DNA from: an uncultured Bacilli bacterium
GTDB lineage: Bacteria; Bacillota_I; Bacilli_A; RF39; UBA660
Length of the DNA stretch: 64,000 bases
Assembly: GCA_947632325.1 (NCBI GenBank)
Contig: CANROU010000001.1
Span: 7,997-71,996, forward strand
Direction: 5' to 3'
Shown here: positions 5,787 to 7,559 of the stretch, piece by piece
Layout of the letters: each line of letters opens with the position of its first letter
Position numbering within the stretch: position 1 is the stretch's first letter
Notes under the pieces: model-generated
Told to the model about the DNA's origin: nothing
Seen by the model: only the letters and a program-made list of their open reading frames with translations
Databases searched by the model: none
Made by a program: the position numbers and the translations under genes

Positions 5787-7559
5787 TCACTCTCCTATAC
5801 CTTCTATATATTTATCTGGCTTAAAAAATTGAGACTCCCAAAATCCCCAATCACCCCAGAAAGTTCCCATGTTATTATCATAATCGACAAATTTAGTACA
5901 TTTACCACTTTCATCGTAAAAAGAAATAGTACCAGTTGAAAAATTATCTGGAGTACTAATGCTCTTCATGTGATACACAGACTTGTTATTTGAAGAAGAT
6001 CCTTTATAAAACTCTTTATCGCTGATAAGGTGATCTTGACCATTTTCGTCGGTGCAATAATATTCAAATTTAGCACCACGTACAGTGTAGTAAGTACCAT
6101 CATCATTATAACGATAATACTCAACATCTTCACTATTTTCACCATCAGAAGTATAAGATGTAACTACGCTTAAACGTCCTTGTAAATCATATTGATAATT
6201 TGTTTGTTTAATAAGGCTACCAACATCAAGATTACAACCTTTTGGAGATGTATATGTCCCTATTTTTTGTCCCTGAGCATTATATTCGTAAAAATATCTT
6301 CTCTCCAGGTCATACAAGTAATAACTCCCATCATCACGATAGTAAGTTATATCACCAGTAACTAAATTCTTTTTATAATAACTATATTGGCCCTCTTTAC
6401 CTTCACGAATAATCATTTCACCTACTAAAGGATCATAAGTCATACTCGGACTTTTTTGTTCATAGTCACGTTGCTTATATTCAATAATTTTTCCAGATGT
6501 ATCGATATGCAAATCATATTTAGTGATATTACCAATAGCATCAATTATCATGATTGGTTTATCGCTATAGCCTTCATTGTAACCGGTAATCGTACCATCA
6601 GGTGAAAATACAAAATGATTAGCGCCTAAAATTTTAGACCCATTCATAAGTTGTTGTCCACCATAGTTACTAGTCCATCGTTCTTTAATTGAACCATCCT
6701 GATTATATAAAGTAGCAATTGTACGGTCATCATTAAAATTTAGTTTCCCATTTTCATCACAATAAACATTTCCTTCAATATAAGATCCGTCTGGATATAG
6801 AATATATTCTACACACAACAACGTCCCCCCCTCCGTATATTGAGACGTCTGTAATAAAGTTCCATCATTATATTTAATTGCTACTTGCCTACCATTCCAA
6901 AAATAGAGTGTCCCCTCATCTGTAGTAGTCATTTTATCGTAGAAAATTTCTTCATTGCCAAATTGAATTGTTTGATTACTTTTATCTGATTTTTTAAAGC
7001 GATTAGAGATGGCACCGCAAAGACGAGCCCACCAACCCTCTTTCTGGGAGTTAGCATCATCTGTTTTTGCCTTTTTAAACCATCCCGAAACAGTTTCCCG
7101 GAGCTTATCCCACCAACTTTCCGTCTTTTCATTGGCTACTGTAGCTCCTGTTGCTTCTAATTGTATTTCTAATGGCATTGGCCCTATAAAGTTAGGATCA
7201 CCTGGCTTTGCTACTGTTGTATTTGATACATTTGTTTCCGTCATGGACGTAGAATCTAAAGTTGATAAACCATTTAAACTACTTAATTGTTGATTTAATA
7301 ATGCTTCACTCTCTTTATATTTATTTCTTACTGTGTCTAAAGTATAATATATATCTTGACATCCGTTTTTTATGGTCTCCATATCAGAAACCAATGTACC
7401 AAAGTCATTCCTTATATTATTACGATTTAATACATCATTATCGGTATTCCTTCTTATTCCTTCTACGATATTTATAACACCATCAAGGTCTCCTGGAATG
7501 CCCATGTATCTACCTTTGATTATTTCCATTGTTTGAACATCTATTGTGTTAGCAGCCAT
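5787..7559 (-). CDS. T7SS polymorphic-toxin family protein: LXG-like N-terminal domain + YD-repeat region (LXG1)
   Basis: The N-terminal ~130 aa are homologous to ORFs 10069..13761 and 14823..17165 (MAxNTIDxQTMEIIKxRYMGIPGDLDG...). The C-terminal half is rich in YD-type repeats (YQYDLQGRL, YYRDDGSYY). Confidence 0.5.
   Translation of the reverse strand: MAANTIDVQTMEIIKGRYMGIPGDLDGVINIVEGIRRNTDNDVLNRNNIRNDFGTLVSDMETIKNGCQDIYYTLDTVRNKYKESEALLNQQLSSLNGLSTLDSTSMTETNVSNTTVAKPGDPNFIGPMPLEIQLEATGATVANEKTESWWDKLRETVSGWFKKAKTDDANSQKEGWWARLCGAISNRFKKSDKSNQTIQFGNEEIFYDKMTTTDEGTLYFWNGRQVAIKYNDGTLLQTSQYTEGGTLLCVEYILYPDGSYIEGNVYCDENGKLNFNDDRTIATLYNQDGSIKERWTSNYGGQQLMNGSKILGANHFVFSPDGTITGYNEGYSDKPIMIIDAIGNITKYDLHIDTSGKIIEYKQRDYEQKSPSMTYDPLVGEMIIREGKEGQYSYYKKNLVTGDITYYRDDGSYYLYDLERRYFYEYNAQGQKIGTYTSPKGCNLDVGSLIKQTNYQYDLQGRLSVVTSYTSDGENSEDVEYYRYNDDGTYYTVRGAKFEYYCTDENGQDHLISDKEFYKGSSSNNKSVYHMKSISTPDNFSTGTISFYDESGKCTKFVDYDNNMGTFWGDWGFWESQFFKPDKYIEGIGE

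Follow-up and report, generated by a model that had tools for sequence, protein, structure and literature searches.

A possible non-toxic beta-repeat substrate of a type VII secretion system, encoded between WXG100-LysM and DUF4176 genes in an uncultured Bacilli bacterium

The window, a 64,000-nucleotide stretch of DNA from an uncultured Bacilli bacterium, carries a type VII secretion system (T7SS) island. The gene studied here (the target; 5787..7559, minus strand) is an intact open reading frame (ORF) of 590 codons in the ORF list; its start codon and the AAGGAG ribosome-binding site that precedes it by 8 nt were read directly from the sequence. From N to C terminus, the encoded protein has a helical targeting domain, a linker, amphipathic helices rich in Trp, and a repeat domain of beta-hairpins. 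Its immediate upstream neighbor (7576..8046, minus strand; probable true start, ATG at 8034) encodes a fusion of a WXG100-like protein with a C-terminal LysM domain (Pfam LysM, E = 4e-17; WXG100, E = 3e-8), a candidate co-secreted partner. Further upstream, a pair of WXG100 genes (8404-8724 and 8099-8389, minus strand; Pfam WXG100) heads the operon. Their products are 85 to 89% identical across related loci, and that of the second gene has a terminal YxxxD motif, which reads YQAAD in the translation. Downstream of the target, as an earlier sequence-only reading had stated, a gene for a small DUF4176 protein of 112 amino acids (5444..5782, minus strand; Pfam E = 7e-29), a candidate chaperone, begins 4 nt past the stop codon. 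It is followed after 19 nt by the gene for the EssC ATPase (829-5424, minus strand), identified from its ORF and from 74% identity to a protein of related locus L003 that carries FtsK_SpoIIIE, and then by a gene for a YukD-like ubiquitin-fold protein (571-825, minus strand; weak Pfam match). The target thus sits in a T7SS setting, with three WXG100-type genes directly upstream and EssC and YukD downstream, and the intergenic gaps between the first WXG100 gene and YukD, all of 3 to 52 nt, are consistent with a single operon.

EssC and YukD are the sole recognizable machinery genes of the island, which is bordered by ftsY on one side (directly after the YukD/EssC end) and by pcsB/ftsEX on the other; EssA, EssB, and EsaA were all absent from it. 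The same reading had reported neither an adjacent immunity gene nor a recognizable terminal toxin domain for the target, and both observations hold: no ORF between the flanking genes is fit to encode an immunity protein, and no toxin model in Pfam or NCBIfam matched.

Residues 1 to 96 (7272..7559, minus strand) are predicted from alignments and a low-confidence AlphaFold2 (AF2) model to form a two-helix hairpin that serves in export or targeting, with helices at residues 8 to 46 and 54 to 96 (DSSP of the model) and a conserved RNT[DE]xEVLNR motif closing the first helix. This domain had been described as common to two large neighboring effectors, and we found that target residues 1 to ~160 are 64 to 66% identical to the N termini of the 780-amino-acid (14823-17165) and 1,230-amino-acid (10069-13761) proteins; a DNA repeat family, D1, spans the same region. 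The domain also occurs in P0005, an ADP-ribosyltransferase toxin from a related T7SS locus in which the next gene encodes an ADP-ribosylglycohydrolase, and it aligned with the N-domain of the target's relative P0007 with an hhalign probability of 82% (E = 1e-5). Its presence in two adjacent large effectors and in P0005 argues that this system uses it as its effector-type targeting domain.

The label “LXG-like,” which had been given to this domain, is an analogy only. LXG (PF04740) had no match at an E value of ≤1 in Pfam (or in NCBIfam where scanned) in the target, in either paralogue, or in P0004, P0005, P0006, and P0007, and the N-domain profile retrieved no LXG structure from the PDB. All three window proteins have the tripeptide L25-D26-G27, and the corresponding columns read V-T-S, F-S-S, L-T-S, and others in P0004 to P0007; as aligned, the Leu-x-Gly motif is not conserved among the relatives. 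Pfam WXG100 (PF06013) did not match the N-domain of the target either, and RNTDxEVLNR stands at the predicted hairpin turn in place of WxG.

A linker at residues 97 to 141 (7137..7271, minus strand) has no regular structure in the AF2 model and is predicted to be disordered. It bears the conserved motif GDPxFIGPxPxxxQLExTGATV, with invariant columns G120, F124, G126, P127, P129, T137, G138, and A139 across five aligned proteins. Hydrophobic moments then point to two Trp-rich amphipathic helices (ESWWDKLRETVSGWFKK and EGWWARLCGAISNRFKK) at residues 146 to 190 (6990..7124, minus strand): the values for segments 149 to 162 and 177 to 190 are among the highest in the protein. Every family member, like the toxin paralogues, has W/F-rich counterparts of these helices after its TGA(T/V)V motif. 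DUF4176 proteins, small ones included, experimentally stabilize cognate T7SS toxins (PMC12478183; PMC12482557), and a large-type DUF4176 protein binds an amphipathic helix (PMC12478183). The target has the features of a DUF4176 client: a DUF4176 gene lies next to it, and an amphipathic helix separates the targeting domain from the C-domain. By analogy with the system described in PMC12478183 we regard residues 146 to 190 as a candidate binding site for the chaperone. A DUF4176 gene occupies the orthologous position in related loci L001, L009, L005, and L003. In L003 and L004 the DUF4176 gene before essC is intact and the gene for the repeat protein has decayed to a remnant, so the DUF4176 protein may not be a dedicated chaperone, and the repeat protein is dispensable.

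In several respects the target resembles the LXG toxins of T7SSb (Streptococcus intermedius TelA/TelB, with Lap and Ltc/DUF4176), in which an N-terminal helical domain is followed by a linker and an amphipathic “middle,” small WXG100-like genes lie upstream, DUF4176 is adjacent, and essC is next door (PMC12478183). Unlike them, it has no LXG profile match and no conserved LxG tripeptide, its helical domain is ~96 rather than ~200 residues long, it has neither a C-terminal toxin nor an immunity gene, and its C-domain is the conserved half of the protein, not the variable one.

Residues 196 to 590 (5790..6974, minus strand) make up an orphan beta-hairpin repeat domain, delineated from composition, motif enrichment, AF2 models, and homology to the C-domains of P0004, P0006, and P0007. 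The C-terminal 390 residues are rich in Tyr (11.0%), Gly (10.5%), and Asp (8.7%). In composition-preserving shuffles, [YFW][DN]xxG was expected 1.0 times and observed 5 times (P = 0.0025), and [DNS]G[STK] was expected 2.0 times and observed 10 times (P < 0.0005). An AlphaFold model had been proposed as a way to look for a beta-shell. Mean pLDDT was 37.5 for the full-length protein (2-sequence alignment) and 41.1 for the C-domain (4-sequence alignment); because of this low confidence, secondary structure is the only usable output. Both models place ~30 short strands with DG, NG, and YDxxG turns in the domain, at a confidence too low to assign a fold. Self-BLAST detected no internal repeats in the C-domain, autocorrelation gave only weak periodicity in the target (P0004 and P0007 are more regular), and the C-domain had no significant similarity to the remainder of the toxin paralogues. 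The domain is acidic and beta-rich and belongs to no known family.

The C-terminal half had been read as dominated by YD/Rhs-type repeats, and here the profile searches disagree with the sequence-only reading. Pfam RHS_repeat (PF05593) scored 11.3 bits on the target (E = 0.49; cutoff, 22), with no stretch passing, and so neither of the two families proposed for a profile search, RHS_repeat and LXG, is significant in Pfam. The TIGR01643 model (YD_repeat_2x) scored 16.3 bits against a cutoff of 15.8 (E = 0.011), from a single stretch at residues 452 to 469, with none significant alone. Residues 452 to 495 (6075..6206, minus strand; NYQYDLQGRLSVVTSYTSDG...YYRYNDDGTYYTV) are the only part of the protein with the look of a canonical YD repeat pair. 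No RHS matches were found in P0004, P0006, or P0007; no model for DUF6531, the RHS-associated core (PxxxxDPxGL), or a toxin matched the target in Pfam or NCBIfam; and the tails of the relatives to which its own C terminus aligns are not toxins. Repeat-domain profiles (A4 and A6) run against all PDB chains gave 0 matches at an E value of ≤10, and hence no Rhs, Tc, or teneurin protein, and in a Foldseek search with the low-confidence model, Tse5 and teneurin appeared only at ranks 28 to 38 (TM ≤ 0.17). Judged by curated models, with Pfam below its cutoff and TIGR01643 marginal, the repeats appear largely not to be of the Rhs/YD type, the 452-495 stretch being what remains of that assignment.

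Nor would the combination of a T7SS N-domain with Rhs repeats, which had been called atypical, be unprecedented, since Rhs proteins at T7SSc/d loci and Listeria LrhA have been described (PMC10327511, PMC11217815). LrhA, a T7SSb-associated Rhs toxin of Listeria monocytogenes, resembles the target in its unannotated helical N terminus with beta-hairpin repeats downstream, in the three small helical/WXG100 genes upstream, and in the adjacent essC (PMC10327511). It has 1,656 amino acids, DUF6531, 16 significant PF05593 repeats, a C-terminal toxin, and, as modeled, a closed cocoon, and its immunity gene is lrhI (PMC10327511), whereas the target has ~395 repeat residues and no significant PF05593 match, core, toxin, or immunity gene. 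The target could conceivably be a degenerate remnant of such a T7SS-linked Rhs/YD toxin, functionless or decaying after loss of most of the shell, the core, and the toxin tip. The good YD double repeat at 452 to 495 that reaches the TIGR01643 cutoff, the enrichment of YDxxG-like turns, the status of Rhs toxins as known T7SS cargo, and the target's position as the most divergent and shortest member of its family all speak for this idea. We consider it highly improbable, however, given an intact ORF with a good ribosome-binding site, three relatives that lack RHS matches and are under purifying selection, profiles that find no Rhs, Tc, or teneurin chain, and the missing DUF6531, RHS core, and toxin.

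Fold searches gave few leads. Sequence and profile searches of the PDB returned nothing relevant, and Foldseek of the second model against the PDB gave generic beta-meander matches only (all TM < 0.26), with G-box structures at ranks 2 to 4 for what is a low-confidence model. The repeats do share ~9- to 10-residue strand-turn units with (P)DG/NG turns with the Tcp10_C/G-box of CPAP/SAS-4 and with MORN-type repeats. Tcp10_C (PF07202) scored 24.4, 26.1, and 26.4 bits on P0004, P0006, and P0007, all under the gathering score of 36, and had no match on the target at an E value of ≤1; MORN_2 (YwqK type; PF07661) matched P0007 only (18.8 bits against 29.6; E = 0.0016) and not the target. All of these matches are below threshold, TM scores on the low-confidence model are 0.13 to 0.25, and the CPAP/SAS-4 G-box belongs to an unrelated context, the eukaryotic centriole. 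Two further candidates were rejected. A Shiga toxin B-subunit match at residues 478 to 514 (Pfam SLT_beta, 18.7 bits against 27; NCBIfam, 16.5 against 203) overlaps Tyr-rich hairpins and has no counterpart in the relatives, and PDB matches to antibody heavy chains are compositional, arising through YY...G motifs.

The family is small. Word-indexed protein searches with the target or a 2-sequence profile found only the target and one paralogue, and exact look-up of the target protein found no record. For the repeat half, an exhaustive search of 1.84 billion cluster representatives yielded a single relative, from which a second search reached two more. The target has only 4 relatives among the 1.84e9 representatives, and the family comprises four clusters in about 15 billion proteins. 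Scans of genome and metagenome contigs with N-domain and C-domain alignments produced nothing real; a Parafilimonas match at 33% identity was dismissed, as it covers just 49 residues. Within the family, the target is the shortest and most divergent member, with a C-domain 27% identical to that of P0004 and a C-terminal tail ~60 residues short compared to the family.

Among P0004, P0006, and P0007, the repeat domain is 69 to 70% identical (dN/dS about 0.22) and the N-domain 46% identical (dN/dS about 0.49). The repeat domain of the relatives is under purifying selection, and its better conservation relative to the N-domain is the reverse of the polymorphic-toxin pattern. Invariant positions in it are mostly Gly, Asp, and Tyr residues of turns and strands, with no conserved Cys and one conserved His. 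The repeat-protein family has no hydrophobic segment; windows above a KD value of 1.6 number 17 to 19 in two of three toxin paralogues and one in the third.

The gene order also recurs. A module consisting of a WXG-like gene (with or without LysM), the repeat gene, and DUF4176 is found in the window, L001, L009, and L005 to L008, all of them T7SS loci. It directly precedes essC in the window, L001, and L009; in the latter two the WXG100-LysM gene also lies directly upstream of the repeat gene, and DUF4176 and then EssC follow it. Upstream of the module, L001 has clpC and another non-T7SS gene, and housekeeping genes come straight after YukD in L009; neither locus has toxin or immunity genes in its readable stretch. 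L005 has a LysM-less homologue at the WXG100-LysM position (28% identity; E = 2e-11), and its order is small helical protein, repeat protein, DUF4176, toxin, immunity. No immunity gene for the repeat protein was found in any of the four lineages.

Known Lap proteins are helical hairpins of ~100 residues. A repeat protein acting as a cytoplasmic, unsecreted Lap-like adaptor, whose N-domain bundles with those of the toxins and whose repeats recruit an intracellular partner, would have to depart from that size. Its N-domain, moreover, is homologous to that of the toxins and not to the small WXG100 partners, and no toxin gene lies in the readable stretch of L001 or after the module in L009. We give this adaptor role only a very slim chance, even though the gene order of L005 resembles the lap-lap-ltc-toxin arrangement (PMC12478183).

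A toxin or other genuine effector is a more serious contender, albeit one that we regard as rather unlikely. Its C-domain would be novel and non-enzymatic, e.g., active on membranes or the envelope, and it would target only other species or host cells, so that no adjacent immunity gene is needed, or else the immunity gene would lie elsewhere. Lack of an adjacent immunity gene is no proof of non-toxicity, the N-domain is the same as that of bona fide toxins, the characterized clients of DUF4176 proteins are toxins, and the C-domain is acidic, beta-rich, and of no known family. On the other hand, there is no immunity candidate in four lineages, the C-domain is conserved more than the N-domain, no catalytic-type residues are conserved, a hydrophobic or translocation segment of the toxin-paralogue kind is missing, and the repeat gene was lost by decay in L003 and L004, which kept their toxins. 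The lack of immunity genes, the better conserved repeat domain, and the missing hydrophobic segment likewise disfavor the earlier alternative of a toxin hidden within the repeats.

Our preferred reading, to which we assign slightly less than an even chance, is that the target is a non-toxic substrate of the local T7SS, a beta-repeat accessory or surface protein. A non-Rhs repeat domain kept without an immunity gene in four related bacteria makes a secreted accessory or surface protein likelier than a toxin. The idea of a non-toxic structural or adhesive effector had been raised from the sequence; recurrence without immunity, conserved repeats, and the lack of a hydrophobic segment favor it, and its LXG and Rhs premises hold up less well than had been claimed. 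We postulate that the helical hairpin of residues 1 to 96, of the same kind as those of the neighboring toxins, targets the protein to EssC, and that the upstream WXG100-like protein, here equipped with a peptidoglycan-binding LysM domain, is probably its co-secreted helical partner. In the cytoplasm, the DUF4176 protein would probably stabilize the target, most likely by covering the Trp-rich helices at 146 to 190. After export, the 395-residue C-domain, a predicted meander of ~30 strands, would be exposed outside the cell as a binding or scaffold surface, e.g., for adhesion, cell-cell contact, or cell-wall association, rather than acting as an enzyme toxin. The LysM partner could tether the repeat protein to peptidoglycan, although such tethering cannot be general, since the partner in L005 has no LysM domain.

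Alternatively, the repeat protein might not be cargo at all and might instead be a structural part of the apparatus, forming with the LysM-WXG protein a wall-spanning or surface assembly that replaces EsaA, EssA, and EssB. EssC and YukD are the only recognizable machinery in an island bounded by ftsY and pcsB/ftsEX, L009 passes from YukD directly to housekeeping genes, and the module directly precedes essC in the window, L001, and L009. The G-box fold forms extended, self-associating single-layer sheets, and G-box structures are among the top Foldseek matches, with sub-threshold Tcp10_C matches in three relatives; that similarity, however, falls under every curated threshold and comes from low-confidence models. 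The absent machinery genes could also be elsewhere in the genome. In L003 and L004 the repeat gene has decayed while EssC (74% identical to that of the window), YukD, and the toxins are intact, and the repeat protein is therefore not essential for the secretion machine. We judge an apparatus role improbable. The most elaborate version is likewise a long shot: the repeat protein and its LysM-WXG100 partner would form an exported, peptidoglycan-anchored beta-sheet assembly (a fiber, conduit, or contact device) of a minimal EssC-plus-YukD system, replacing the extracellular role of EsaA/EssA/EssB, with expression switched by promoter poly-G tracts.

Returning to the non-toxic substrate that we prefer, a parallel is found in mycobacteria. 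PE_PGRS and PPE-MPTR proteins are T7SSa substrates in which a short helical targeting domain is joined to long Gly-rich, non-enzymatic repeats; they are exported to the surface, need a dedicated cytoplasmic chaperone, and have no immunity gene. The target is alike in joining a helical T7SS domain to Gly-rich repeats without an immunity gene, but the two are unrelated in sequence and belong to different secretion subtypes, and GGA/GGN repeats and the EspG chaperone stand against DG/YDxxG hairpins and DUF4176. If exported, the target would represent in Bacillota what the PE/PPE repeat proteins are in mycobacteria, and would be a candidate factor for surface contact or cell-wall passage in T7SS-dependent antagonism. 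Large T7SSb-type substrates studied so far are nearly all toxins with immunity proteins; here, a toxin-type export domain and chaperone arrangement appear to serve a conserved, apparently non-toxic beta-repeat domain, alongside a WXG100-LysM fusion and in an island without the usual membrane components. A family of four clusters limits the general importance of such an arrangement unless the mechanism is shared.

The target operon has a candidate promoter at 8761..8791 (minus strand), read from the sequence as TTGACA, a 19-nt spacer, and TATAAT. The G9 tract of the pcsB-proximal promoter is present in three of three independent assemblies, so phase variation is not demonstrated. The spacer of the target-operon promoter likewise holds a G9 tract (8776-8784); the other two poly-G tracts lie at 13798-13807 and 17202-17210. 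The target-operon promoter belongs to a conserved module present in three copies, and poly-G tracts occur in all three T7SS promoters of the island.

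The repeat protein (590 aa) is encoded by an intact open reading frame at 5787-7559 on the minus strand, with an AAGGAG motif 8 nt 5' of its ATG. A DUF4176 gene (5444-5782, minus strand; 112 aa; Pfam E 7e-29) starts 4 nt past its stop codon and is followed, after 19 nt, by genes for a 1531-aa EssC and then an 84-aa YukD-like protein. On the same strand, the upstream genes are one (7576-8046) for a WXG100-like protein that ends in a LysM domain and two for WXG100 proteins (8099-8389 and 8404-8724). Intergenic gaps from the first WXG100 gene through YukD are 3-52 nt, consistent with one operon, and we found no coding capacity for an immunity protein between the genes flanking the repeat protein. 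Residues 1 to ~160 are 64-66% identical to the N termini of the 780-aa and 1230-aa effectors encoded farther upstream, a kinship mirrored by copies of the D1 DNA repeat family. In all of these respects (intact frame, DUF4176 spacing, common N-terminal domain, and absence of an adjacent immunity gene), the sequence-only reading was borne out.

The fusion of a WXG100-like hairpin to a peptidoglycan-binding LysM domain is kept at three loci in other assemblies (L001, L003, and L009), and we found no description of such a fusion at a T7SS locus in the literature searched. Translation of this gene probably begins at the ATG at 8034 rather than at the TTG at 8046. An inverted repeat with perfect 17-bp arms and a 4-nt loop (8052-8089) lies between it and the second WXG100 gene, and the coding strand carries no clear U-tract there. 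The repeat may act as an attenuator, or as an mRNA-stabilizing hairpin that sets the strongly expressed WXG100 genes apart from the remaining operon.

With the repeat protein as the query, phmmer was run exhaustively against 1.84 billion cluster representatives and returned five proteins: the query, both paralogues, P0004 (660 aa), and P0005, an ADP-ribosyltransferase toxin that matches in the N-domain only. When P0004 was the query, P0006 (673 aa) and P0007 (621 aa) were also recovered. The repeat protein, P0004, P0006, and P0007 can be aligned end to end, including a C-terminal tail, F-x-x-P-x-x-Y-I; the repeat protein is the most divergent of the four (C-domain 27% identical to that of P0004) and lacks ~60 residues of the tail. 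We conclude that these proteins are a real, very rare family.

Gene order at the loci encoding P0004 (L001) and P0006 (L009) is that of the window (WXG100, WXG100, WXG-LysM, repeat protein, DUF4176, and EssC), with YukD after EssC also in L009. In L005 to L008, P0007 comes after a homologue of the WXG-LysM protein that has no LysM domain (28% identity, E 2e-11) and before DUF4176, a toxin, and a probable immunity gene. L003 and L004 have intact WXG-LysM and DUF4176 genes ~180 nt apart, and the gap (L003, 10735-10916; L004, 7547-7728) holds a remnant with 47% identity to P0006 residues 11-44 and an "...ETESIWD*" fragment, indicating that the repeat gene was ancestral and decayed in this lineage, where YukD, toxins, and an EssC 74% identical to that of the window remain.

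The N-terminal domain had been labeled LXG, a label that did not hold. LXG models from Pfam and NCBIfam matched neither the repeat protein, its two paralogues, nor its relatives, even at E ≤ 1, and an N-domain profile searched against PDB chains found no LXG structure. The L25-D26-G27 triplet is present in the three window proteins and is not conserved in the relatives. What is conserved is a predicted two-helix hairpin (H8-46 and H54-96, in a low-confidence model) with an RNT[DE]xEVLNR motif, and beyond it Trp/Phe-rich amphipathic helices. Between the hairpin and these helices lies a linker motif, GDPxFIGPxPxxxQLExTGA(T/V)V (7137-7271, minus strand), which is strongly conserved in the repeat protein (P0001) and its counterparts P0002 to P0006; P0007 retains only its TGA core. 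The motif could serve in recognition or mark a site of processing. The same N-domain heads an ADP-ribosyltransferase toxin in a related T7SS locus, with an ADP-ribosylglycohydrolase gene downstream. The P0007 N-domain is remotely homologous (hhalign probability 82%, E 1e-5) and matches the one in the ADP-ribosyltransferase toxin encoded at the P0007 locus, so that in each genome the repeat protein bears the local effector-type targeting domain. By analogy, the N-domain is a functional counterpart of LXG, and it is not an LXG member by any tested criterion.

Y (11.0%), G (10.5%), and D (8.7%) are abundant in the C-terminal 390 residues, which are significantly enriched in the hairpin-turn motifs [YFW][DN]xxG (5 versus 1.0 expected) and [DNS]G[STK] (10 versus 2.0 expected). 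These motifs are likewise enriched in P0004, and together the counts point to a real, nonrandom repeat structure. The assignment of these repeats to the YD/Rhs type largely did not hold: a canonical-looking YD pair occurs solely at residues 452-495, TIGR01643 scored 16.3 bits against a cutoff of 15.8 with no single stretch significant, and Pfam RHS_repeat was not significant (11.3 bits versus 22, E 0.49). DUF6531 and RHS core models had no match in the repeat protein, nor did toxin domains, as the sequence-only reading had anticipated. RHS models had no match in P0004, P0006, or P0007, which gave subthreshold matches to Tcp10_C (24 to 26 bits versus 36) and MORN_2. The PDB includes Rhs, Tc, and teneurin shells, yet C-domain profiles matched none of its chains at E ≤ 10. 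A closed Rhs cocoon needs more than ~395 residues. Listeria LrhA, for example, has 1656 aa and 16 repeats (PMC10327511). The repeat period in the relatives is ~9 to 10 residues per strand and 19 to 20 per hairpin and is weak in the window protein. AlphaFold2 models, proposed as a check for a beta-shell, had mean pLDDT values of 37.5 and 41.1 and Foldseek TM-scores of <0.26, such that neither a shell nor any other fold could be assigned. We describe the C-domain as a generic DG/YDxxG beta-hairpin meander of no assigned family.

Selection bears on whether this domain is a toxin. In the P0004-P0006 comparison, identity is 70% for the C-domain (dN 0.197, dS 0.885) and 46% for the N-domain (dN 0.45, dS 0.925), and the C-domain behaves likewise between P0004 and P0007. 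A C-domain better conserved than the N-domain is the reverse of a polymorphic toxin. Invariant residues of the family are mostly G, D, and Y. Hydrophobic segments, which are long in two of the three toxin paralogues, are missing from its members, and outside the N-domain the paralogues show no significant similarity to the C-domain. No immunity candidate lies beside the repeat protein at any locus found, and no toxin gene was seen in the readable stretches of L001 and L009. The repeat protein is most likely nontoxic.

In published work, T7SS toxins are kept stable ahead of export by their cognate DUF4176 proteins. The large type binds to an amphipathic helix within a disordered middle region; for the small type, one of which TelD requires for stability, binding to hydrophobic helices has been proposed (PMC12478183). 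DUF4176 proteins of Streptococcus suis pair with the C-terminal toxin type (PMC12482557). Residues 146-190 of the repeat protein form two helices among its most amphipathic, a conserved feature. We propose that the downstream DUF4176 protein chaperones the repeat protein and that the N-terminal hairpin of the repeat protein bundles with the upstream WXG-like protein, in analogy to Lap-type partners (PMC11217815, PMC10327511). Export would then depend on EssC, and outside the cell the repeat domain could serve in binding or as a scaffold, possibly tethered to peptidoglycan via the LysM domain of the partner. However, DUF4176 is retained in L003 and L004, where the repeat gene decayed, and the L005 partner has no LysM domain.

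The protein resembles LXG-type substrates by analogy in its targeting domain, small helical partners, and putative DUF4176 chaperone, but every LXG membership test run was negative. Like LrhA, it has an unannotated helical N terminus and beta repeats and is encoded downstream of three small helical genes, but it lacks every defining Rhs feature. Conceptually closest are mycobacterial PE_PGRS and PPE-MPTR proteins, which join a T7SS helical domain to a nonenzymatic repeat domain. The combination of a T7SS domain with Rhs repeats, which had been considered atypical, would not be new in itself, since Rhs proteins have been reported in association with T7SSa, b, c, and d (PMC11217815). The family is a new variation on the T7SS-substrate theme.

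Flanking the T7SS island (571-17165) are ftsY, cut off by the left edge of the window, and pcsB/ftsX/ftsE. The island's recognizable machinery consists of EssC and the YukD-like gene, with no EssA, EssB, or EsaA homologues within the island; in L009, an LRR protein and cysS directly follow YukD. The island may represent a minimal T7SS subtype or one not yet classified (see T7SSc-j in PMC11217815). The 780-aa (14823-17165) and 1230-aa (10069-13761) effectors, both on the minus strand, match no Pfam or NCBIfam family and have Gly-rich hydrophobic segments past the common N-domain. Small unannotated ORFs after the 1230-aa effector (9386-10060) and after the 780-aa effector (14573-14854 and 14276-14566) are probably immunity genes, and each set is followed by the effector's own DUF4176 gene.

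Only three G/C homopolymers of at least 8 nt occur in the window (29% GC), all poly-G on the coding strand: G9 at 8776-8784, G10 at 13798-13807, and G9 at 17202-17210. Every tract falls within a conserved promoter module (8769-8814, 13792-13837, and 17195-17240), flanked by a perfect TTGACA on one side and a perfect TATAAT on the other (spacers of 19, 17, and 16 nt, respectively), and each module precedes one of the three T7SS transcription units. The pattern looks like that of T7SS and effector genes whose expression phase-varies by slipped-strand mispairing. The tract is absent from the orthologous L001 promoter, and the pcsB-proximal copy is G9 in three of three independent assemblies, with no length variation among them. 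In L014 (5206-9206; ENA ERZ27249080), from the same or a near-identical organism, pcsB and the G9 promoter are followed directly by the 1230-aa effector; compared with 10069-17351 of the window, the 780-aa effector cassette is missing. D1 copies are 97% identical, and the absence fits recombination across the duplicated promoter and the near-identical 5' coding regions. No tRNA genes were found in the window, and its only Rfam match is an L31-Firmicutes ribosomal-protein leader at 40522-40550 on the minus strand (RF03156, 37.6 bits).
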